DNA from: a virus | Lineage: Duplodnaviria > Caudoviricetes | Length of the DNA: 53,307 nucleotides | Strand: one strand, 5' to 3' | IMG/VR virus record: IMGVR_UViG_3300048855_000082 | Location: 1-53,307 of that record | Position numbers and translations under genes: made by a program | Shown: positions 478 through 53,269 of the stretch, piece by piece | How the letters are laid out: every line of letters begins with the position of its first letter | Numbering within the stretch: position 1 is the stretch's first letter | The notes under the pieces: model-generated | Told to the model about the DNA's origin: nothing | The model's input: the letters and a program-made list of their open reading frames with translations, nothing else | Databases searched by the model: none

Positions 478-1596
478 CTACTTAGGCAACCGCACAGTAA
501 AGAGCGTCCCAGCCGAGCCTGATTCCACCTCAATTTTGCCTTTATGAGCTTCTACTATCTCTGCTGCAATATGCAGCCCTAGACCCAGCCCGCCCCCTGC
601 GGGCTGCCCAGATCCAACACCGGGAATGTATCGCTCCATCGGTTGAAATATTGTTGGGAGGACCTGCTCTGGAATTGGAGTACCTTGGTTATGGACGCTG
701 AAAACCACCTCAGTTTTTGCACATTCGAGGCACACCGAGACGGGTGACTCTTTGTCTCCATGGTGGACCGCATTGCTAATCAGATTCGAGAAAACCTGCT
801 CGATGCGGGGGGCGTCGAACTCTCCGACAGCCGCTTTACACGTGGCCGCGACAATCTCGGCGTTGGGGTGAAAGGTGCTGGCTTCATCGACGATCTGCTC
901 GCAGATAGGCACCAGGTCAACACGCTCAAGTCGCACCGGGATACCGTTGCCCAGATGAACCCTAGTAAAGTCCATGAGGTCAGCAACGATCCTATTTGCG
1001 CGGCTTACGCTTGAGTAAATTCGAGCTGATAGCTTTGTGACACGGCTTCCTAGGTCATCCGTCCGCAACAGCACATCTGAAGCAAGTAGTATGGCGCCGA
1101 GCGGCGTCCGCAGGTCGTGGCCGAGGATACCGAGGAAGATGTCGCGAGAGCTCTGGGCAGCGCGAGTGTAGCTTGCAACTGATTCAGCCAGAGCCTGATC
1201 GATTGCTTCATTAAAACGAAGCATGTCGCGTACGTGATACTCGGAGTCTTCCTGCGGCGTCGCCATCCAGTGCTTTAAAACGCTGGCCCTGAGAGCGCGG
1301 TACTCCGAAACCATCTGATCAATGGTGAAACCCGCCGAAAGGCGGGTGAGAGCATGGCATTCTGCTGCGGTATCCTCTGTGCTTCCCGGCGCCTTGCCGT
1401 GCGATTTATCAACCTGCTGCTGCTCGGTCTGCTCTGTTTCAAGATCCTCGGCGATGGTCTCTAGCATGAGGCTGGCGTGGTCCCGGAGCCCCGTGCTATC
1501 CATAGGTGGACCCGGGATATCCATGGTCCGAGCGAAATCCTCCCATTCTTGAAGGATCGATTCCATGTGCGTAGTGATAAATGCAGCCAACCGCAT
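478..1596 (-). CDS. Soluble sensor histidine kinase (RsbRD_N-like N-terminus, HisKA, HATPase_c)
   Basis: H-box ILGHDLRTPL, N-box FSNLISNAVHH, G-box GGGLGLGLHI; no TM segment. Confidence 0.92.
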   Translation of the reverse strand: MRLAAFITTHMESILQEWEDFARTMDIPGPPMDSTGLRDHASLMLETIAEDLETEQTEQQQVDKSHGKAPGSTEDTAAECHALTRLSAGFTIDQMVSEYRALRASVLKHWMATPQEDSEYHVRDMLRFNEAIDQALAESVASYTRAAQSSRDIFLGILGHDLRTPLGAILLASDVLLRTDDLGSRVTKLSARIYSSVSRANRIVADLMDFTRVHLGNGIPVRLERVDLVPICEQIVDEASTFHPNAEIVAATCKAAVGEFDAPRIEQVFSNLISNAVHHGDKESPVSVCLECAKTEVVFSVHNQGTPIPEQVLPTIFQPMERYIPGVGSGQPAGGGLGLGLHIAAEIVEAHKGKIEVESGSAGTLFTVRLPK

Positions 1597-3937: not shown

Positions 3938-4538
3938 ATCCTCACCAACGGAAAGCACTTAACTATCAACAGCTTACGCCGCCCGCAAACGGTTACGCTG
4001 TCTCAAGAAGACGCGCAGTGTACACGCTGTGAAGCGGTGTGACTCACGTTTTGTTCACGTGCGCGTTTTCTCCTCTCCAGCGCTCTGCCGACGATCCCCC
4101 TTCTCCTTTAATAGCTGCGCAAGGCTGCATTAAATGCCGGCATGCGATGCCTCTCCTAGATTCAGCCAAACGACGCATCAGCGCGCGTGAGCATCTCGCC
4201 CAGTACCTCTGCGTTGAAGAGGGTTTGGCGATTGATGCTTCAGCATTGCCCGACCAGTAATCAAGGGCGATCTGTTGTAGCCCCGTCAAATCGACTACGT
4301 GGTGCCGGTTTTCGAGATCGTTATGGAAAGCTGGCGCACCGTCCCTTCAAGTGAATTCGCACTCCGAGGCTTTGGAGAGCCAAGGGTCTACGGACCGCAT
4401 TCGAGGCAGGGCGTTCGTCGAGCGGCTCACCGTCGGGCTGCGCGGAGTAAGGTGCCCCGCTATTGCGAAAAGCGTCGTTGAAAATGAATCTGCAGTTAAA
4501 GGCCCCCGAACCGACGAGGACTCATCATCGAGGATGTA

Positions 4539-4775
4539 TCAACGGTCATCATTTTGGTTGATCTTTACATCACGGCCTCCTTGAATAGCATTACCCGATT
4601 GGACTTTTTGGATTTGAGATGCACGAGGCTTAGCTGACTGTAAAAAAAACGACCCTGTCAACGAAACCAGCGCAGCGCCAAGACCAGCCCAAGAGTCAAA
4701 ACCGGGTTTTGAATAGACCCAACAAATGCACAGGCAAATCAAGAATAACGAAACAACTATCGCCAGACTTTTCAC
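4539..4775 (-). CDS. 78-aa two-TM protein with C-terminal amyloid-like motif (candidate membrane effector)
   Basis: GTG start with GAGG RBS, 10 nt after upstream stop; two hydrophobic segments; tail SQIQKVQSGNAIQGGRDVKIN. Confidence 0.8.
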   Translation of the reverse strand: MKSLAIVVSLFLICLCICWVYSKPGFDSWAGLGAALVSLTGSFFLQSAKPRASQIQKVQSGNAIQGGRDVKINQNDDR

Positions 4776-4785
4776 AAAACCTCAC

Positions 4786-5838
4786 TCAATTGATCCATGT
4801 AGAAAGATCAGCGAACTCGCCGACTGTCCGAGTTATATTAGCGTGACCGATGGCGATTCCCACGCTGGTAAGCACAAAACTACCAGCTGCAGAGCCGGAC
4901 CACCAGGTGAAGACATCGGCCATATATGGCCGTAGTTCGATAATTCTGTCCCTTACAGCTTCCGGAGGCATCAAGTTCCCTTTGAACATGTCCTTGATCT
5001 TACCCTGAATACTGGTTGAAACCGGATGAAGTTCAAAAAGACCACTAAGCACCTGATCATTCAATGCTTTAATCTGACATTTATTTGAGTCATTTAGACA
5101 CCTGATGAAAAAAGGGGGATGTATATACGTTTCAAAACCTATAGATTGGACGTCCTCATCACTTAACCCTTTTTGAAAAAGCCCAGGGTAATGCAGGGTA
5201 AATACTTCGCTCAGGTCCATCATCTGCATACTCCGAGACCCGCACCCAGTAAAAGCTAGGTGTTGGTATGCAGCCTCATTACCGCTTCTGTCTCCAATAA
5301 ACGGCATCACATGGCTGTCAAGGTAGATTCCGAAATCTTCGAAATCTGTAAAAGTCTGGTTTGCGGTATATCTGAATAGGTAGATTACTGCTAACGATGC
5401 CAGATGCTGCTTTGTCAGTTTCGGGGCAATAACAAGAGATTCATTTAGCACGATCTGCAGTATGTTTCGACCATCTTGCTTGCTTCGCTCCACCAGTAGA
5501 TCAACAAGAAGCCCCCCAAGATCTTCATCACCAGATTTGCCATACTCCTTTTGGACATTTAACAGAGAATACTGAAAGTCCGGGTCCACGGCTTTGTCTA
5601 ACCCGGCAGGATATTCGCTCGAAAGTTTAGAGAGAACGCGATCAGTGATCTCTTCCACCCTAGCACTCATGACCTCTCTTGCCTGACCAGCGAGCTCGAA
5701 GAAAGTAGCCTTCGCGACATCCTGCGCTATGCATCGAGCTTCGGCGTAGCTTAGGCCCATGTTTACGACAACATCGCCTCCCCCCTGGACGACATTACTA
5801 TGATCGCCCACCGTCTGCTTCTGTCCGTTGTCCAGCAT
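4786..5838 (-). CDS. LPO_1073/Vpar_1526-like protein (Abi-alpha/DUF2806-like core) with N-terminal amyloid-like motif
   Basis: GGAGG RBS; N-terminus QKQTVGDHSNVVQGGGDVVVN; core VDPDFQYSL...LLVDLLVERS, C-terminal LTSVGIAIG; AT-richer than phage core. Confidence 0.75.
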   Translation of the reverse strand: MLDNGQKQTVGDHSNVVQGGGDVVVNMGLSYAEARCIAQDVAKATFFELAGQAREVMSARVEEITDRVLSKLSSEYPAGLDKAVDPDFQYSLLNVQKEYGKSGDEDLGGLLVDLLVERSKQDGRNILQIVLNESLVIAPKLTKQHLASLAVIYLFRYTANQTFTDFEDFGIYLDSHVMPFIGDRSGNEAAYQHLAFTGCGSRSMQMMDLSEVFTLHYPGLFQKGLSDEDVQSIGFETYIHPPFFIRCLNDSNKCQIKALNDQVLSGLFELHPVSTSIQGKIKDMFKGNLMPPEAVRDRIIELRPYMADVFTWWSGSAAGSFVLTSVGIAIGHANITRTVGEFADLSTWIN

Positions 5839-6070
5839 GTTGCCTCCGATTCCGTTTTCGTTGAATCCCTTAATCCGTCTACTTGAAGCGTAAAAGGTGG
5901 GTCTTTGAAATTTTTTGTAAATGCGTCGCAGTGATTATTGGTAGCTGGCGGCATCGACTCTCCGAGCTCATTTCAACGCGCTTTTGTAGAGGATAGTCTA
6001 TCTCCAATGCAAGGCTTGCCCGCAACATCAGCGCCTGCTTTCACTTTGGTTAAGTGCTTGGGAGTCATGC

Positions 6071-6409
6071 TCAGTTCCTCCAGTGATCCCGAATGCTGTG
6101 GGTAACAACGCCCCAGATATCGAAATAGTCCCCTTCCATGATGTACCGGCCCGGGTACTTTCGGTTGGCCGAACGCAGCACCAGTTGTCGGCCCATGATG
6201 GAGAAGTACTTCACCAGCGGCTCCTGATTCACCACGCCGATGATGATCTGGCCGACCGTAGCTTCCATCCCCTTGTCGACGATCAGCAGATCGCCGCAGA
6301 AAATACCCGCCCCTTCCATGCTATCCCCCTGGACCTTGACCAAGTATGTGCCAGGCGCACGGATGTTCAAGACCTCGTCCAGGGAGATGTCCAAGTGGTC
6401 AGGAACCAT
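6071..6409 (-). CDS. UmuD/RulA-like S24 peptidase lacking the N-terminal cleavage arm
   Basis: ISLDEVLNIRAP...VQGDSM (catalytic Ser)...PLVKY (Lys)...IWGVVTHSI; start uncertain (6409 or 6421). Confidence 0.8.
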   Translation of the reverse strand: MVPDHLDISLDEVLNIRAPGTYLVKVQGDSMEGAGIFCGDLLIVDKGMEATVGQIIIGVVNQEPLVKYFSIMGRQLVLRSANRKYPGRYIMEGDYFDIWGVVTHSIRDHWRN

Positions 6410-6413
6410 ATCG

Positions 6414-6710
6414 TCATTCAAAGCGGCACCACCAGGACTGGAAGTAGAACGCCTCACCAACCTGCTCGATGCCGGAGACAATCAATCCCTGCGTACCCAT
6501 GCTCGTCACGTTGGCATCCAGCAGCCTTGGCAAAACATCCGGCGCGTGGCCGACGCTGTTCAAGATGAAAGCCTCCCGAGTGATCCGGCCAAGCGCGGAG
6601 CACTGAGATTCCACGATCTGCACATCACCTTTGAGCGGCGGGATCTTGCTTAGCTGGTCTTCCGGTAGGGCGACGCCCATCTGGCGGCGCGGAGTGATAA
6701 GGACGTACAT
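6414..6710 (-). CDS. SOS-box-preceded hypothetical protein
   Basis: 98-aa ORF abutting the umuD-like gene; LexA box just upstream. Confidence 0.7.
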   Translation of the reverse strand: MYVLITPRRQMGVALPEDQLSKIPPLKGDVQIVESQCSALGRITREAFILNSVGHAPDVLPRLLDANVTSMGTQGLIVSGIEQVGEAFYFQSWWCRFE

Positions 6711-6808: not shown

Positions 6809-7507
6809 ATGTGCGGACGCTACTCGATCTACGAGCCAATGGACCACTACCTCAAGGAGCTCGCGCCAGAGCAGTTGGTCATCAATGGGTACGATCTCTG
6901 GCCGATCGAGCGCTATAACGTCGCGCCGACGACTCGCGTGGAGATCATCAGGCCAACCGAGGAAGGATTGAGTGTAGACAAGGTGCGATGGGGATGGTCG
7001 CCATTTTGGGCGAAAGGTGAAGGGAAGCGCCCCGCCCCGATTAATGCCAGGGTCGAGACGGTGCTCGCGGGGAAGTACTTCAAGCAGCTCTGGCCCAAAG
7101 GCCGTGCCTTGGCTCCGGCCAACGGCTGGTTTGAATGGGTGAAAGACCCTAACGACTCGAAGCGAAAGCAGCCGTACTTCATCAGGCTAAAGGAGAAAGG
7201 CCCGATGTTTTTCGCCGCGCTCGCGGAAGTGCACCAGGGGCTTGAGCCCGACCCGCAGGACGGCTTCGTGATCATCACCGCCGACAGCGATCAGGGAATG
7301 GTCGACATCCACGACCGCCGCCCAGTCGTGCTGAGCCCCGAACACGCCCGGGAATGGGTGGATCCCGAGACGACGCCAGAGCGCGCCGCCGAGATCGCAA
7401 ACGAGTGCTGCAGGCCGACTGAGGAATTCACCTGGTTCGAGGTGAGCAAGGATGTAGGAAACGTGCGGAATCAGGGGCCACATCTGATCATCCGTAAGAA
7501 CTCATGA
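6809..7507 (+). CDS. SOS response-associated peptidase (SRAP/HMCES/YedK family)
   Basis: N-terminal MCGRY, RYNVAPT, INARVET, FEW, IHDRRPV motifs. Confidence 0.95.
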   Translation: MCGRYSIYEPMDHYLKELAPEQLVINGYDLWPIERYNVAPTTRVEIIRPTEEGLSVDKVRWGWSPFWAKGEGKRPAPINARVETVLAGKYFKQLWPKGRALAPANGWFEWVKDPNDSKRKQPYFIRLKEKGPMFFAALAEVHQGLEPDPQDGFVIITADSDQGMVDIHDRRPVVLSPEHAREWVDPETTPERAAEIANECCRPTEEFTWFEVSKDVGNVRNQGPHLIIRKNS

Positions 7508-8515
7508 AATCCGGCTCATAATCTTATGCCGAACGTTTTCAATGGGACGCTCGAGAGCATGGTGTATCAATCCGCCTGCTATGACAGAGATGATAGTCGC
7601 CGTGAGCACTCCCCATACACTATATGGCAGGTAATCGTAGACTTTTACGATAATTAGCCAATGCACAAGATAAATCGAATAGCTCCATTTTCCAATCAGA
7701 GTAAAGAGTCTTGACGACAAGATTCTGCCATAAAAGCCAGCGCCGCTTATCAGCGAAAGGGTAAAAACCGCGCAGCCAAAGCTAAGAAAAACAAACTTAT
7801 TTACTAAGTAATCACTTGGGACAATTCCGAATATCTTATATTGACAGTACGGACTAATTACCACAGCACTGACAAGCAGAACTGTGACCAACATGTCTAC
7901 CCGGTTCGCGTTGATCGAGGGCGATACGGCAGGCAATATCACTGCGGCGAATGTTCCTATTGTAAAACATGAAAAATACCAATAGACATCGGTCGTAATA
8001 GTTGGGGTGTACCAGTATGGCCATATGGCTTGTTGAAGGAGAATCATCAACACTCCGACAGCCACCGCGCACCCGTAGCCATAGCTATTGCGGCACCATA
8101 AAGCAACGAACGAAACCGCAGGCAAAAATAGGTAATACTTGAATTCAACTGGGATGGTCCATAGATGGCTATAGCCGCCTTGTAGGCTTAGGGCCATCCA
8201 CATATCAGCATCACTATTGATACCGGCGGTTCCGACGTACCGATACACGACTACAAACAGGATATATAGAGGCAATATCCTAAGTATGCGTCCGATCACG
8301 TACGAAGACAGCGCTTTAGGCTGAAAACCGTCTGCCTCGAACTTAGCAGTTAGCAGAAAAGCGCTTAAGACAAAAAATATCCATACACCCAGTTTCGGAA
8401 GACCTATGAGATATCCATGTAAGCCTTGGTACAGGAGAACCACGGAATGGAGGACGAGTACGATAAGACACGCGCAAGCCCTGATGCCATTCGCCCCTTG
8501 GAATCTACGTGCCAT
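7502..8515 (-). CDS. Acyltransferase-3 (OafA/Oac-like O-acetyltransferase)
   Basis: GIRACACLIVLVLH, GVWIFFVLSAFL, RILRILP, HLWTIPVEFKYY, SYSIYLVH; many TM segments; AT-rich; possible own extended -10 (TGcTATATT) upstream. Confidence 0.93.
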   Translation of the reverse strand: MARRFQGANGIRACACLIVLVLHSVVLLYQGLHGYLIGLPKLGVWIFFVLSAFLLTAKFEADGFQPKALSSYVIGRILRILPLYILFVVVYRYVGTAGINSDADMWMALSLQGGYSHLWTIPVEFKYYLFLPAVSFVALWCRNSYGYGCAVAVGVLMILLQQAIWPYWYTPTITTDVYWYFSCFTIGTFAAVILPAVSPSINANRVDMLVTVLLVSAVVISPYCQYKIFGIVPSDYLVNKFVFLSFGCAVFTLSLISGAGFYGRILSSRLFTLIGKWSYSIYLVHWLIIVKVYDYLPYSVWGVLTATIISVIAGGLIHHALERPIENVRHKIMSRIS

Positions 8516-35789: not shown

Positions 35790-36580
35790 CAGAGACCTCC
35801 CAGATTTTCAGCCCAGCTGGTGTCGTCGAAATCTGGCGCCTGGCCTTGGCCTGCCGCCTTGACTCGCTCACGCTTGACCCACTGCACCAGGCGATAGCAC
35901 CAGCCATGCGCCGAATCGACGGTGCAAGGCCGGGCAGCATAGAAACCCTTGAACGATCGAACTGCCGCATCCGGCACTGAGTCGGCAGGGATACCAGCGA
36001 TTGCGATTTGATCGGCCAAGGCTTTACCGTTTGGCTCCCACGCGGCGAACATGGCGAAGCGCTGGTTCGGTGCTGGGCACTCGGCGGCGGCGCGATCTTG
36101 CTCGGCAACCTCAGCGGCCAACTCGCTCTGCAGCTGCTGCTCTTCGGTTACTTGATGGTTAAGTGATGTATTGGGTGCAGCTGCTGCACCCCGTTCTGCG
36201 GTTTGCTGCACCCCGTTCTGCTTTGAGCTGCACCCCGTGCGGTTATCTGCACCCCGTTCTTTACGGGGTGCAGCATTTGCACCCCGTTTAAGTTGGAGGT
36301 CGTACACGACTGGGCGGCGGTCACGGCGATCGATGTACGCGGCGGCAATGGCCTGATTGCCCTCGCTGATGAAGCCCGCCTTCTCCAGCTCATCCAGTTT
36401 CAGGCGGACGGTGCGCTCGGAAAGACCGGTGTCGTCTGACAGGGTCAGCGCAGACGGGAAGGCCCCACGGCCATCGCTACCGGCGTAGTTCGCCAGGCAC
36501 AGCAGCACGTGACGGGCAGCAGGGTTTTCGAGAGAAGCCTTCGGCAGTGCGAGAGCCCATGACATTGCTTGAACGCTCAC
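35789..36580 (-). CDS. Replication initiator (O-like, HTH_36 N-terminus)
   Basis: MSVQAMSWA, VLLCLANYA, FPS..TL...TGLSERTV; contains iterons. Confidence 0.88.
   Translation of the reverse strand: MSVQAMSWALALPKASLENPAARHVLLCLANYAGSDGRGAFPSALTLSDDTGLSERTVRLKLDELEKAGFISEGNQAIAAAYIDRRDRRPVVYDLQLKRGANAAPRKERGADNRTGCSSKQNGVQQTAERGAAAAPNTSLNHQVTEEQQLQSELAAEVAEQDRAAAECPAPNQRFAMFAAWEPNGKALADQIAIAGIPADSVPDAAVRSFKGFYAARPCTVDSAHGWCYRLVQWVKRERVKAAGQGQAPDFDDTSWAENLGGL
36173..36288. repeat. Iterons / phage origin
   Basis: (C)TGCACCCCGT direct copies at 36184, 36206, 36228, 36247, 36278; inverted copies at 36173 and 36263. Confidence 0.85.
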
Positions 36581-45968: not shown

Positions 45969-47087
45969 ATGAGCCAGCAGCATCAGATTCTTGTTGGCGA
46001 CTGCATCGATATGATGCGGACGCTGCCGGAGCAGTCAGTTCACACATGCGTGACCAGCCCGCCGTACTTCGGGCTGAGGGATTACGGCGTCGAGGGCCAG
46101 ATCGGCCTGGAAGAAACGCCCGCCGAGTTCATCGCTCGCCTTGTTGCCGTGTTCCGCGAAGTGCGTCGAGTACTCCGCGACGACGGCACGATCTGGGTGA
46201 ACATGGGTGATAGCTATGCCGGTAGTTGGGGAGCGCAAGGCAGGCCTCAAGGTGACGGGCAGATGTCCGGGCGCAGCGTGGCGTCAGCGCGACAGATCAA
46301 CGAACACCCGCGATTCAAGTCGGGGACCGGCGTGCGCGGCCGCGAGATGGGAATGAAGTCAAAGGACCTGATGGGTATGCCCTGGCGCCTTGCCTTTGCG
46401 CTGCAGGACGATGGCTGGTATCTGCGACAGGACATCATCTGGAACAAGCCGAACCCGATGCCTGAAAGCGTGCGAGATCGGTGTACCAAGTCGCACGAAT
46501 ACATCTTCCTGCTGAGCAAATCGAAGAAGTACTACTTCGACCAGGCCGCCATCCTCGAACCATGCTCCCCGAACACCCACGCGCGGCTCTCGCAGGACGT
46601 GCAAGCCCAAATCGGTAGCGAGCGGGCAAACGGCGGCGCGAAGAGCAATGGCAACATGAAAGCGACGGCACGCAAGAGCAACGGCGTGGGGTGGGGTCAC
46701 GGCACTGATGCAGACAAGCGCCAGCGCGGCAGGGTCAAGGATAACGAGTCAATGAAATCGGCCCTCGCGATCATGCCGACGGAGCGGAACAAGCGCTCTG
46801 TATGGACGGTGGCCACGCACAGTTTCAAAGGCGCCCACTTCGCCACCTTCCCGCCCGACTTGATCCGGCCTTGCATCCTGGCCAGCGCGCCGCGGGGTGG
46901 TGTGGTGCTGGACCCGTTCGGCGGTGCCGGTACCACGTCGTTGGTTTCGATGCAGGAGGGCCGTCAGTCAATCATCTGCGAGCTAAACCCAGACTACGCG
47001 GCCATGGCGCGCGCTCGGATTGATACTGCCTGGCTGGATGGGGCGGCGCAAATGGATGTGTTCCATGACGCAAACCCGGCCGACTGA
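45969..47087 (+). CDS. DNA methyltransferase, N4C/N6A beta class
   Basis: VTSPPY, HFATFP, VLDPFGGAGT. Confidence 0.93.
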   Translation: MSQQHQILVGDCIDMMRTLPEQSVHTCVTSPPYFGLRDYGVEGQIGLEETPAEFIARLVAVFREVRRVLRDDGTIWVNMGDSYAGSWGAQGRPQGDGQMSGRSVASARQINEHPRFKSGTGVRGREMGMKSKDLMGMPWRLAFALQDDGWYLRQDIIWNKPNPMPESVRDRCTKSHEYIFLLSKSKKYYFDQAAILEPCSPNTHARLSQDVQAQIGSERANGGAKSNGNMKATARKSNGVGWGHGTDADKRQRGRVKDNESMKSALAIMPTERNKRSVWTVATHSFKGAHFATFPPDLIRPCILASAPRGGVVLDPFGGAGTTSLVSMQEGRQSIICELNPDYAAMARARIDTAWLDGAAQMDVFHDANPAD

Positions 47088-47812: not shown

Positions 47813-48736
47813 ATGTATTCAGCAATCGATTTGTTCGCCGGGCTCGGTGGATGGTCTACCGGTGCCCGCGCGGCGGGTGTCGAAGTCCTCTGGGCCGCAA
47901 ACCATTGGCCGGTCGCGGTCGAATGGCACAGCGCCAACCACCCGGATACGCTTCACGTATGCCAGGATCTACACCAGGCACGCTGGGACCAGGTTCCGGC
48001 GCACGACATCTTGCTGGCCTCGCCCTGCTGCCAGGGCCACTCGAAGGCCCGCGGCCAAGCCAACGGCAATCCCCAGCATGATGCTTCCCGCTCGACAGCA
48101 TGGGCGGTCGTGTCGGCTCTTGAGTTCCACCGTCCCAGCGTCGCTCTCGTTGAGAATGTGCCTGAGTTCGCAGACTGGGCGCTGTATCCGGCATGGACAG
48201 CAGCGGTGCAGGCGCTCGGCTACCAGGTCGCGCCACACATCGTTGATTGCGCAGACCTCGGCGTGCCTCAGCACCGCGTGCGGCTTTTCTTGGTGCTGAC
48301 GCGCAGTAAGGCGCCGCTGATGTTGGAGCTGCACCGGCGACAGCACGTGCCGGCAGCAAGCTTCCTCGACTTCACAGGTGGCAAATGGTCCCGCGTCGAG
48401 AAACCGGGCCGAGCGCAGGCGACGCTTCAAAGGGTCGCCAATGGCCGGGCTCGCTTCGGCGATCAGTTCATCATGCCCTACTACGGCAAAGGCTCCGGGC
48501 TCACCGGGCGCGACATGAACAGGCCGATCGGCACCATTACCACGCTGGACCGGTGGGCCCTGGTGCGCGGCGACGAGATGCGAATGCTCAGCGCTGACGA
48601 GGCCTTGGCCGCCATGTCTTTTCCCGCTGGCACGCTCCGCCCGAACAATCACCGCCAGACCATGCACATGGCCGGCAATGCAGTTCCACCGCTCGCTGGT
48701 CAACGCGTGATCGAAGCGCTGATGGCCGCTGCCTGA
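47813..48736 (+). CDS. DNA cytosine-C5 methyltransferase
   Basis: DLFAGLGG, SPCCQG, ENV, PQHRVR, GNAVPP. Confidence 0.93.
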   Translation: MYSAIDLFAGLGGWSTGARAAGVEVLWAANHWPVAVEWHSANHPDTLHVCQDLHQARWDQVPAHDILLASPCCQGHSKARGQANGNPQHDASRSTAWAVVSALEFHRPSVALVENVPEFADWALYPAWTAAVQALGYQVAPHIVDCADLGVPQHRVRLFLVLTRSKAPLMLELHRRQHVPAASFLDFTGGKWSRVEKPGRAQATLQRVANGRARFGDQFIMPYYGKGSGLTGRDMNRPIGTITTLDRWALVRGDEMRMLSADEALAAMSFPAGTLRPNNHRQTMHMAGNAVPPLAGQRVIEALMAAA

Positions 48737-51672: not shown

Positions 51673-52074
51673 ATGGCAAACGCCACTGCAGCCAAGGCCA
51701 CGAGCATCCTGCCGCGTTTCATTCGGTTCGGCGATGCACCTGGCTATCTCGGCATGTGCCGGGATGAATTCAACAAAACCGTACGCCCGAATGTGCGCGA
51801 GTTTCCCATCGGAAAACAGGGTGTCGCGTTCGACCGGCATGAGCTCGATGAGTGGGCTGACGCCTACATCGCCGCAAAGGCGATTGAAAAAGCTGCCAAT
51901 CAAGACAACAATCGGCCTCGCAGCGAGCGCCAAGGAGCTACACGATGGCGCGAAAAACAATTTCCGGCCTCTACCAGAAAGGTGGAATCTGGCAGATCGA
52001 CAAAGTCTTCCGGGGCCAGCGATTTCGAGAAAGCACTGGCACTGGTGACCGGCAAGAAGCCGAGCAGTATCTGA
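51673..52074 (+). CDS. Excisionase-like protein
   Basis: GGAGG RBS; PRFIRF..AP.YLGM...FDRHELDEWAD; overlaps integrase start. Confidence 0.75.
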   Translation: MANATAAKATSILPRFIRFGDAPGYLGMCRDEFNKTVRPNVREFPIGKQGVAFDRHELDEWADAYIAAKAIEKAANQDNNRPRSERQGATRWREKQFPASTRKVESGRSTKSSGASDFEKALALVTGKKPSSI

Positions 52075-53123
52075 TTCACCGGTTAGAACAACTGCGGCAA
52101 GAGAAGATTTATGGTGTACGGCGGGTACGTACTTGGGAGGAAGCAGCGACCAGGTTTCTCCTCGAGTACAAGGATCAGCCCTCCATCGCGCTATCGGCCC
52201 ACCATCTGAATCACCTCCATCCGTATCTCAAGAATCTACCGTTGACACACATCGACGATCGGGCACTTGAGGAGTTTATTGCGGAAAGGCTGGAGGGTAT
52301 GGTGCTGCCGTGCGGTAAGCAGCTGAAGCCGGTAGCGCCTCGGACAGTAAACATCTCGATCGAACGCGTCATTCGGATTCTGTCGCTGTGCGCAAGGAAG
52401 TGGCGGGATGAAGAGCGCAGACCCTGGCTCGACTCAGTGCCGATGCTGACCAAGCTGGATCTGAAGAAGAAGGTTCGACAGCCCTACCCGATGTCATGGG
52501 AAGAGCAATCGATCCTTTTCGGAGAGTTGCCAGCACACCTCCAGAAGATGGCCTTGTTCAAGGTGAACACAGGCTGTCGCGAGCAGGAGGTCTGCAAGTT
52601 GAAGTGGGAGTGGGAAATCTATGTGCCCGAGCTGGAGACGAGCGTATTCCTGATCCCGTCAGACTTCGGCGGTCGCAACGAGCGATCTGGCGTAAAGAAC
52701 GGCGACGAGAGACTGGTTGTGCTTAACACGATCGCGAAATCGGTCATCGACGGCCAGCGGGGTCTGAGCAACGAATGGGTGTTCCCTTATAAGGATCAGC
52801 CAATCCAGCGCATGAACGATTCGGCCTGGAGGAAAGCAAGGGCGCGCGCGGCGAAACTCTGGCAGGAGGAAAACCTTCGCCCCGCTCACCCAGGATACGC
52901 TTCCATCAGAGTGCACGACTTGAAGCATACATTCGGCCGGCGCCTTCGCGCTGCCGGTGTCACTGAGGAGGACCGGAAGGCTTTACTTGGACACAAGAAC
53001 GGCAGCATCACCAGCCACTACTCCGGCGCGGAGCTCGGAAAGCTGATTGAGACTGCGAATATGGTATCAGCAACCGACTCGCGTGGACCGGTTCTGACAA
53101 TCTTAAAAAGGAAGACAGGATGA
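51945..53123 (+). CDS. int: Phage integrase (tyrosine recombinase)
   Basis: TGCREQE, HDLKH, LLGH, TSHYS; adjacent to att/tRNA. Confidence 0.95.
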   Translation: MARKTISGLYQKGGIWQIDKVFRGQRFRESTGTGDRQEAEQYLIHRLEQLRQEKIYGVRRVRTWEEAATRFLLEYKDQPSIALSAHHLNHLHPYLKNLPLTHIDDRALEEFIAERLEGMVLPCGKQLKPVAPRTVNISIERVIRILSLCARKWRDEERRPWLDSVPMLTKLDLKKKVRQPYPMSWEEQSILFGELPAHLQKMALFKVNTGCREQEVCKLKWEWEIYVPELETSVFLIPSDFGGRNERSGVKNGDERLVVLNTIAKSVIDGQRGLSNEWVFPYKDQPIQRMNDSAWRKARARAAKLWQEENLRPAHPGYASIRVHDLKHTFGRRLRAAGVTEEDRKALLGHKNGSITSHYSGAELGKLIETANMVSATDSRGPVLTILKRKTG

Positions 53124-53177
53124 AGCCCCGAAATTCTCCCGAAGCATGAAAAAGCCCAACCTGAGAAGATTGGGCTT

Positions 53178-53240
53178 AGTCATTGAAATATATGGTCGGG
53201 ACGGAGTGATTCGAACACTCGACCCCTAGCACCCCATGCT
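53178..53240. repeat. Right attachment site
   Basis: Identical to 65-127. Confidence 0.95.
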
Positions 53241-53269
53241 AGTGCGCTACCGGACTGCGCTACGCCCCG
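53193..53269 (-). tRNA. tRNA-Pro(GGG)
   Basis: rc CGGGGCGTAGCGCAGTCCGGTAGCGCACTAGCATGGGGTGCTAGGGGTCGAGTGTTCGAATCACTCCGTCCCGACCA; 77 nt, GGG anticodon, CCA end. Confidence 0.97.

Follow-up and report, generated by a model that had tools for sequence, protein, structure and literature searches.

A conserved two-gene prophage module with matching terminal motifs, a candidate for amyloid-type signalling to a small membrane hairpin

Why should the beginning of one protein resemble the end of its neighbour? The question is raised by two adjacent genes in the window, by which we mean the whole 53,307-nt stretch of DNA analysed here (positions 1 to 53,307 of IMG/VR virus record IMGVR_UViG_3300048855_000082), a single integrated Pseudomonas-type prophage bounded by tRNA-Pro attachment (att) repeats. 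A preliminary description, made from the letters of this DNA, had proposed that the larger gene encodes a sensor and the smaller one a membrane effector, and that their matching termini carry an amyloid-type signal in anti-phage defence. We find that the two genes are one conserved module, and that their products are very probably a functional pair coupled through the shared motif. The full reading, in which a triggered sensor would template the motif of a membrane hairpin and so bring about abortive infection, we place at a probability of about 0.5. We refer to the two proteins as sensor and effector, both roles being putative throughout. The features of the pair are the following.

4786 to 5838 (including stop), minus strand: sensor gene of the LPO_1073/Vpar_1526 family, 350 aa, ATG start (open reading frame [ORF], NF045477, PF28206, phrog_19542)
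5761 to 5826, minus strand: N-terminal motif of the sensor, residues 5-26, GQKQTVGDHSNVVQGGGDVVVN, outside the NCBIfam domain, with a predicted local distance difference test score (pLDDT) below 50
4792 to 5757, minus strand: LPO_1073 globular domain, residues 28-349, with a helical N-terminal half and an alpha/beta C-terminal half (AlphaFold2 [AF2] model)
5843 to 5847, minus strand: ribosome-binding site GGAGG, separated by 4 nt from the ATG of the sensor gene (sequence reading)
4776 to 4785, minus strand: 10-nt spacer with the GAGG ribosome-binding site of the small gene (sequence reading)
4539 to 4775 (including stop), minus strand: small, putative effector gene, 78 aa, GTG start (ORF, phrog_27656, family profile)
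4641 to 4769, minus strand: helical hairpin, residues 3-45, comprising hydrophobic helix 1, an S-K-P-G-F-D-S turn and helix 2 (Kyte-Doolittle scan, alignment A3)
4557 to 4616, minus strand: C-terminal motif of the effector, residues 54-73, QIQKVQSGNAIQGGRDVKIN, after a basic linker (alignment to the sensor motif, family motif columns)

These coordinates and the two ribosome-binding sites bear out the preliminary description of co-oriented, AT-rich genes 10 nt apart. The genes run head to tail, and the GC content is 0.43-0.50 across positions 4501-6000 vs about 0.56-0.63 for most of the element. Reads from four other sequencing runs gave 151-nt pieces over the pair, and none of the contigs spanned both genes.

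The sensor starts with MLDNGQKQTVGDHSNVVQGGGDVVVN and the small protein ends with QIQKVQSGNAIQGGRDVKINQNDDR. The similarity that had been noticed between the two termini stands up to alignment: sensor residues 6-26 match small-protein residues 54-73 over 21 aligned columns with one gap. Against the first 28 residues of the sensor, the small protein reaches a local score of 42, which is the highest among 1063 six-frame ORFs of the window (the runner-up scores 35) and is reached in 11/20000 cases when the last 30 residues of the small protein are shuffled. In their DNA, the motif segments agree at only 36/72 positions, which points to similarity at the protein level and not to a recent duplication. 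Both motifs also share a rare state, Q-G-G, found in 3/150 small-protein representatives and in 5/120 listed sensors, all five of which are the closest relatives of the window sensor. Here and below, sensor counts refer to 120 listed relatives (P0001-P0120) of 1089, and effector counts to 150 representatives (P0122-P0271) of 751.

The preliminary description had asked whether homologues of the sensor regularly have a small membrane ORF beside them whose motif co-varies with theirs, and the answer is yes. Sensor homologues were collected at 64 genome, 18 viral and five metagenome loci. The genome scan gave 0 confirmed loci with the single sensor as query and 64 with alignment A1; the metagenome scan was aimed at the closest sensor relatives, P0002-P0005 (77-59% identity), and the five loci obtained are more distant. 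In a pairwise screen of the 82 loci with a readable sensor N-terminus, an adjacent, same-strand small membrane ORF with a C-terminus matching the N-terminal motif of its sensor was present at 74/82. The partner was taken as the best-scoring nearby ORF, with a threshold of 33 that was chosen after the scores were known; the partnerless loci scored 18-28. As the 82 loci include near-duplicates, the tests below use 66 or 64 unique pairs. Start codons are heuristic in the partner and overlap counts, and the taxonomy of metagenome-assembled genomes may be unreliable. A hidden Markov model built from database sensor N-termini alone flagged the same ORFs, namely 70 small ORFs with the motif at the C-terminus and directly upstream of the sensor.

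The eight partnerless loci are of three kinds. At one (L066), the contig starts at the sensor. Another (L052) was omitted as ambiguous: the motif closes a stop-to-stop frame of 336 aa in which a T2SSE match is found as well, and this frame may be either a long effector or a small ORF run together with a frame beside it. The remaining six (L053-L057 and L060) are from candidate-phyla-radiation genomes, and their sensors likewise carry no motif, so that motif and partner occur together or not at all.

The two motifs of a pair also change together. Across the 66 unique pairs, the mean cognate local score was 53.4 vs 39.5 for non-cognate combinations, and 0/10000 permutations reached the cognate mean. 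The same was seen within each motif class, with 52.7 vs 48.0 in the 'G-I-Q-A-G' class (n=42; 0/10000) and 54.5 vs 43.1 in the 'S-T-N-I-Q' class (n=24; 0/10000). When 64 pairs were anchored on the central Q (L033 and L044 have no anchor and were omitted), 634 identities were counted vs 480.5 in shuffled pairings (0/5000), and eight offsets co-varied (-10, -8, -7, -6, -4, -2, +1 and +3), each above nearly all shuffles. Individual pairs illustrate the point: Q-A-G-R-D stands in both motifs at L026, L038, L041 and L042, a cysteine occupies position -4 of both motifs at the Methanolobus locus L049, and the paired motifs of L082 have 13 nearly identical residues. These permutations ignore phylogeny; common ancestry of neighbouring genes is, by itself, no cause for the head of one to resemble the tail of the other.

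The preliminary description had also counted a receptor gene in first position as part of the design. This holds in the window and fails as a rule of the family, since the small gene comes first in 73/74 pairs and the window is the sole sensor-first pair (1/74). Among 65 unique small-gene-first pairs, the end of the small gene overlaps the start of the sensor gene by 11 nt in 30 cases, by 8 nt in 13 and by 4 nt in four, and the two genes are predicted from this layout to be translationally coupled.

The association is also found when the search starts from the small protein. In a whole-genome search of five sensor-bearing genomes, the profile matched the small gene and the sensor N-terminus alone in the four with a type-A partner. 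When viral contigs were searched for the small protein alone, by its profile, ten loci came up, of which nine, all in prophages, were additional to those above; at all nine a 284-314-aa protein directly follows the small gene. Scans were made of seven such proteins, which come from six loci, and all matched NF045477 (E 4.8e-30 to 1.8e-72) and phrog_19542; the sensors of the other three (L104, L107 and L108) resemble the scanned ones by reading of their sequence, and those of L105 and L109 have a divergent C-terminal third. At L101 (1237-3370), two LPO_1073 sensors of 284 and 314 aa stand in tandem after a single small effector gene, each sensor with its own copy of the motif. The module is rare, with a match in 4/401 sampled genomes of the class, two of them with the hairpin only. 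It is seen in Pseudomonas, E. coli and Synechococcus, in many further unicellular lineages, in some archaea and in prophages.

What kind of motif is shared? A regular expression for the N-terminal core pattern fits 114/120 listed sensor relatives. Across the family, the core of ~20 aa comprises 15-16% Q, 16.5-17.5% G, 20-22% V+I and 7% N, and proline makes up 0.0-0.1% of it vs 3.0% of the rest of the sensor and 4.1% of the effector linker. In the AF2 monomer model, sensor residues 1-27 have a pLDDT below 50, and the motif is modelled as disordered. A central G-φ-Q-φ-G is described as common to the RHIM, PP and BASS3 motifs by Dyrka et al. 2020 (10.1101/2020.01.06.895854). The same signature occurs in 108/150 effector representatives, yet in 2/120 listed sensors: the sensor core is A-I-Q-A-G in 94/120 vs an effector core of G-I-Q-A-G in 80/150, a consistent asymmetry of one residue. 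As a separate observation, the small partners at two candidate-phyla-radiation loci (L058:540-815 and L059:2723-2977) have two successive motif-like segments, A-G-G-D-I... and then Q-K-S-G-K-N-S-x-N-[IV]-Q, a doubling reminiscent of the two HET-s pseudo-repeats.

The sensor belongs to the LPO_1073/Vpar_1526 family, an assignment made in the preliminary description and upheld here by NF045477 at 279.6 bits vs a cut-off of 45 (E 2.7e-83). Model positions 1-257 cover sensor residues 28-349, so that the motif lies outside the domain. PF28206 (Vpar_1526) is precomputed for the sensor and its relatives, the corresponding Atlas cluster is named PF28206 Vpar_1526, and the sensor also matches phrog_19542 (E 2.3e-14), a PHROG without known function. 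A 90%-clustered database holds 1089 relatives at E<=1e-3, nearly all of about 350 aa; no longer relatives of 614-2000 aa turned up, which is weak evidence. LPO_1073 was the sole match in the NCBIfam scan, and a Pfam-A hmmscan with a library copy that predates PF28206 gave 0 families at E<=1; both scans agree with the earlier statement that the receptor is not an NLR.

The whole sensor was modelled with a mean pLDDT of 81.4, and residues 145-350, modelled separately, with 90.8. For the whole-sensor model, Foldseek returned nothing at E<=1e-3 (best E 0.1 in the PDB and 0.13 in BFVD, which holds viral structures), and a wide VIA search gave a best Z of 7.5, to generic helical proteins. For the C-terminal half, the best Foldseek E was 2.2 and the best VIA Z was 6.7 over 66 residues; further VIA matches, to winged-helix proteins at Z of about 3-4, are at chance level. 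The predicted fold is without a match among solved or viral structures, and we do not claim a new fold. An Abi-alpha/DUF2806-like core had been suggested for the sensor; this found no support, with 0 Pfam families at E<=1 and no structural match among the solved and viral structures.

The small protein matches phrog_27656 over residues 1-73 (E 2.6e-7), again a PHROG without known function, and Pfam gave sub-threshold matches alone, to unrelated membrane families. In alignment A3, the window's 78-aa protein lines up over the full length with 36 partners drawn from other loci, and W19, Q56, Q65 and G67 are invariant. In members of the family, helix 1 is followed by an invariant Trp, a turn (W-x4-P-G/D-F/Y-E/D, conserved in A3) and helix 2, and a linker rich in Lys/Arg then leads to the C-terminal Q-x-Q...φ-Q-x-G motif. 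The A3 profile recognises the window protein at E 4.7e-23; against 1.84 billion proteins (50%-identity representatives), it finds 751 at E<=1e-3 and 287 at E<=1e-10, mostly of 75-90 aa. A word-index search with the small protein returned its self-match alone. Among INPHARED phages searched by tblastn, the best E for the small protein was 0.9, and neither the window sensor nor the E. coli-type sensor had a match.

A second partner type, of 55-75 aa, has a single transmembrane helix after a W-x-x-x-N-K-E-W-L-F-S-G-I-G-like segment, gives no Pfam match, and ends in an S-T-N-I-Q motif that is also found on its sensor. It goes with more distant sensors, mostly of about 285 aa, and is placed as follows.

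L007, L013, L024, L031-L033, L039, L040, L049, L050, L062, L069 and L073-L083: small ORF of the second partner type, just upstream of the sensor

Other proteins carry the hairpin in a different setting. In P0266 (243 aa), one frame encodes a hairpin, one copy of the motif and, at residues 75-210 (E 2e-40), an LPO_1073 domain, and the existence of this fusion argues for a physical coupling of the hairpin and the LPO_1073 domain. It is a single database representative with a divergent C-terminus and may be an artefact; recombination between two tandem motif segments would yield a fusion of this kind. P0122, P0148 and P0259, in which the hairpin and motif are followed by extra C-terminal sequence, have no Pfam or NCBIfam match. 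A 226-aa protein at L097:1033-1713 (genome G320) combines a W-x4-P-G-F-E-P hairpin without the motif with pentapeptide repeats, so that the hairpin appears to be a module with other uses too.

Receptor-to-death-effector signalling through amyloids is established in fungi and mammals; to our knowledge, receptor-effector amyloid signalling in bacteria has been shown experimentally for Bab/Agp only.

Bab/Agp (BASS11) of E. coli ECOR25 is, by the preprint's account, a pair in which a ~20-aa motif common to a small membrane-targeting protein and its large neighbour drives abortive infection; T5 resistance is lost when proline is introduced into either motif, and motif assembly is phage-induced and Agp-dependent (Ibarlosa et al., 10.1101/2024.11.07.622273). 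The preliminary description had raised relatedness to this system as a matter for checking, and we detect no domain common to the window pair and Bab/Agp as the preprint describes them. The likeness is one of arrangement. In both cases adjacent genes lie in a prophage or defence locus, a motif of ~20 residues stands at the C-terminus of the small protein and the N-terminus of a large cytoplasmic one, and the effector gene comes first (for our family, in most relatives of the window pair). The domains differ. As portrayed in the preprint, Bab has a helical domain of 109 aa that is related to Bell and has a single hydrophobic helix at its N-terminus, as against a shorter two-helix hairpin of ~45 residues here; and Agp is a protein of 1094 aa, laid out as TPR-GreA/B-C-PIN, as against a 350-aa LPO_1073 domain protein with no Pfam match at E<=1. 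The amyloid and the defence are reported for Bab/Agp from experiment, whereas the window pair is known from sequence alone.

The Bell/NLR pairs (BASS1-10) offer a second comparison. They too share, between an effector C-terminus and the adjacent receptor N-terminus, a short motif whose copies resemble each other more closely within a pair, and the G-φ-Q-φ-G of our effector representatives is like the BASS3 core, although the window motifs are without the strict signature. Unlike those pairs, ours has no NB-ARC/NACHT NLR (Pfam, NCBIfam) and no evident Bell domain. The LPO_1073 family is, moreover, found in unicellular lineages and prophages, whereas Bell/NLR BASS pairs were reported as specific to multicellular bacteria (Dyrka et al. 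2020, 10.1101/2020.01.06.895854). The proposed signalling logic is also that of NWD2/HET-S and of RHIM (RIPK1/RIPK3), in which, as summarised in the preprint, the fold nucleated by the receptor motif converts its identical counterpart on a membrane-targeting executioner (10.1101/2024.11.07.622273). The window pair differs from these in its unrelated globular domains, its organisms and a far smaller effector that is apparently inserted in the membrane before activation.

Finally, the TIR + TM and HAD + TM systems of the P2/P4 hotspots have a small transmembrane (TM) protein that is taken as a suicide effector (Rousset et al. 2022, PMC9122126). Like them, our family is a two-gene cassette of prophage hotspots, with an E. 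coli relative at the gpA-gpQ locus; their sensors use enzymatic or nucleotide messengers, whereas the terminal motif is the only visible link here. On the sequences compared, the pair is analogous to BASS/Bell-NLR, Bab/Agp and NWD2/HET-S and appears to be a member of none, BASS11 being compared by its description only. We found no literature description of LPO_1073 proteins or of their pairing, in a search outside which lay supplementary lists (e.g. the 169 P2-hotspot systems of Table S5B, PMC9122126).

The E. coli version of the pair bears on what the module may be for. It is present in 6/5426 complete genomes at >=80% coverage (that is, at least 80%), and in E. coli H3 it lies in a P2-like prophage, between the replication endonuclease (gpA)/DinI genes and the portal gene. 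The gpA-gpQ interval is described as an anti-phage hotspot, occupied by old and tin in P2 itself (Rousset et al. 2022, PMC9122126). Defence against phages is probably the task of the pair, and the version in the P2 hotspot makes the idea directly testable by standard phage assays and proline mutants. Beside the pair in the same gpA-portal hotspot of E. coli H3, an opposite-strand cassette of three genes for hypothetical proteins (L110:1996-4746) may be a further uncharacterised system.

How would such a pair work? In the mechanism we propose, the small protein would be a membrane hairpin with a cytoplasmic C-terminal tail ending in the motif, and the LPO_1073 protein a soluble cytoplasmic sensor with its motif on a disordered N-terminus. 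A phage cue would cause the sensor to change state or oligomerise, whereupon its N-terminal motifs would gather and form a beta-sheet (amyloid-like) nucleus. This nucleus would recruit and template the matching motif of the small protein, the hairpins would cluster in the inner membrane and cause leakage, and the infected cell would die or halt growth before the phage matures, to the benefit of the prophage and the host clone. The roles of sensor and executor, the direction of the signal, templating by amyloid, damage to the membrane and a function against phages are all suggested by architecture, context and analogy, for which Bab/Agp provides the precedent. Coupling by amyloid-type templating in particular we regard as close to an even bet, if anything slightly below it.

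Several observations weigh against this mechanism. First, the preliminary description had given the small protein two transmembrane helices. In a Kyte-Doolittle scan with a threshold of 1.6, helix 1 (residues 3-21) is strongly hydrophobic (2.67) and stands, whereas helix 2 (residues 29-45) is Ala/Gly/Ser-rich, falls below the threshold and is weakly hydrophobic. Second, neither Pfam nor the structure searches revealed a recognisable NTPase, repeat, nuclease, oligomerising or ligand-binding domain in the sensor. Third, a comparison with PADLOC, suggested beforehand as a check on the defensive role, was negative, with 0 families at E<=1 for either protein in PADLOC-DB v2.0.0 (2023), and the nearest neighbours of the homologous loci are mostly non-defence genes, many of them housekeeping. 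Fourth, the window pair is not the best example of its own family: its score of 42 ranks 29/66 (sensor side) and 10/66 (effector side) among non-cognate partners, its cores, A-I-Q-G-G in the effector and V-V-Q-G-G in the sensor, lack the strict G-φ-Q-φ-G, and, given its unique sensor-first order, it may be a rearranged, possibly impaired copy.

In the alternative that survives best, the two motifs would dock without forming amyloid, as a fixed one-to-one pair or a small oligomer, and the LPO_1073 protein would thereby be held at the inner membrane by the hairpin at all times. The anchored complex would then act at the membrane, in defence or in some other task, and the LPO_1073 domain may be its active part. 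The systematic difference between sensor and effector cores would also be expected of such a fixed heteromeric interface, the P0266 fusion fits a permanent tether as well as it fits templating, and both are further marks against templating. Overlapping, translationally coupled genes suggest a fixed stoichiometry, and co-variation is expected of any conserved interface. However, the motif is disordered in the model, free of proline, rich in Q/N/G/V and ~20 aa long, and so resembles known amyloid signalling motifs; most effector representatives carry the RHIM/BASS3 core signature; both motifs are borne on flexible linkers at the very ends of their proteins; and the two sensors per effector at L101 fit signalling better than they fit a one-to-one anchor. 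On balance, we think permanent anchoring unlikely, although it is a serious competitor.

A second alternative keeps the membrane-active hairpin and dispenses with the sensing of phage: the pair would be an addiction (toxin-antitoxin-like) system, or would serve superinfection exclusion or the timing of lysis, with the motif coupling a membrane toxin to its regulator. Small hydrophobic hairpins are typical of membrane toxins and holin-like proteins, the module moves with integrases and prophages, its rarity in the sampled genomes would suit such a role, and the defence models of PADLOC do not recognise it. Against this, the E. coli version lies in a validated P2 defence hotspot and outside the lysis cassette, the window pair is in a cargo region far from the terminase, the structural genes and any lysis genes seen, and the module also occurs outside recognisable prophages, beside housekeeping and scattered defence genes. 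The hotspot location in particular makes a role other than defence less likely, and we judge this alternative improbable.

That the likeness is a chance one between low-complexity, Q/G-rich termini, or that the small ORF is no gene, could be argued from the shortness and biased composition of the segments and from a window score near the non-cognate mean, and is nevertheless so improbable as to be negligible, given the recurrent partner, the 751 profile relatives of the small protein, its rank among the window ORFs and in the shuffles, the permutation results, the small gene's own ribosome-binding site, and sensor identities of 26-77% across a wide taxonomy, which speak against redundant copies of a single element.

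Were signalling by motif templating to be confirmed, this would be a second bacterial case, unrelated to Bab/Agp and much more widespread, with 751 effector representatives (50% identity) and 1089 sensor clusters (90% identity). The effector would be pared down to a hairpin of ~45 residues and a switch of 20. A function would also be gained for the uncharacterised NF045477/PF28206 family and for two PHROGs, and the natural motif pairs are offered for studying the specificity of templating. We advance more tentatively, as a proposal rather less than evenly poised, that LPO_1073 and hairpin pairs are a large unrecognised family of amyloid-type signalling modules, motif-related to RHIM/PP/BASS3, with a sensor of new fold, the smallest membrane executioner known, and several sensors per effector, as at L101. 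Such a family would extend over many bacterial phyla, some archaea and prophages, the E. coli P2 defence hotspot among its sites, and prion-like templating would become a general, modular wiring of prokaryotic immunity, beyond NLRs and Bab/Agp.

The prophage as a whole has genes for an integrase, a CI-like repressor, two DNA methylases, terminase, tail sheath and tape measure, and a terminase region with 83% DNA identity to Pseudomonas phages. Its ends are marked as follows.

36 to 127, no strand assigned: left att repeat, a copy of the tRNA-Pro 3' end, forming a 92-nt direct repeat that is 92% identical to 53149-53240
53149 to 53240: right att repeat, with tRNA-Pro at 53193-53269
51945 to 53123: integrase

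The pair is located at the cargo end of the element, within the stretch from the left att repeat to about 10 kb and immediately past the genes for tail fibres. Its companions there encode a histidine kinase, an S24 (UmuD-like) peptidase, a SRAP protein, an acyltransferase and a GDSL-like protein. The att repeats, the integrase and the gene content of this region are those of a prophage cargo (moron) slot, the setting that had been given to the pair in the preliminary description. Mobility is likewise visible elsewhere, as phage integrase is the commonest family (11) among 135 nearest-neighbour ORFs of 76 homologous loci; PADLOC matches among the neighbours are scattered singletons, to AbiLi, a ThsB-like TIR, bSEFIR, type I specificity subunits, AriA and mad genes.

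Some further features of the window were seen in passing. The histidine kinase (478-1596, minus strand) has HisKA and HATPase_c domains and a weak RsbRD_N match, with no adjacent response regulator seen, and the UmuD-like S24 peptidase (6071-6481, minus strand) is without an adjacent UmuC-like gene. The SRAP (SOS-response-associated peptidase) gene (6809-7507, plus strand) and a family-3 acyltransferase gene (7502-8515, minus strand) are further morons beside the pair. The two DNA methyltransferase genes (45969-47087 and 47813-48736, both on the plus strand) are one of the N6/N4 type and one of the C5 cytosine type. Near the early/replication genes, positions 36182-36260 hold three to four tandem repeats of 19-22 nt, TGCTGCACCCCGTTCTGCGGTT-like and iteron-like in appearance.

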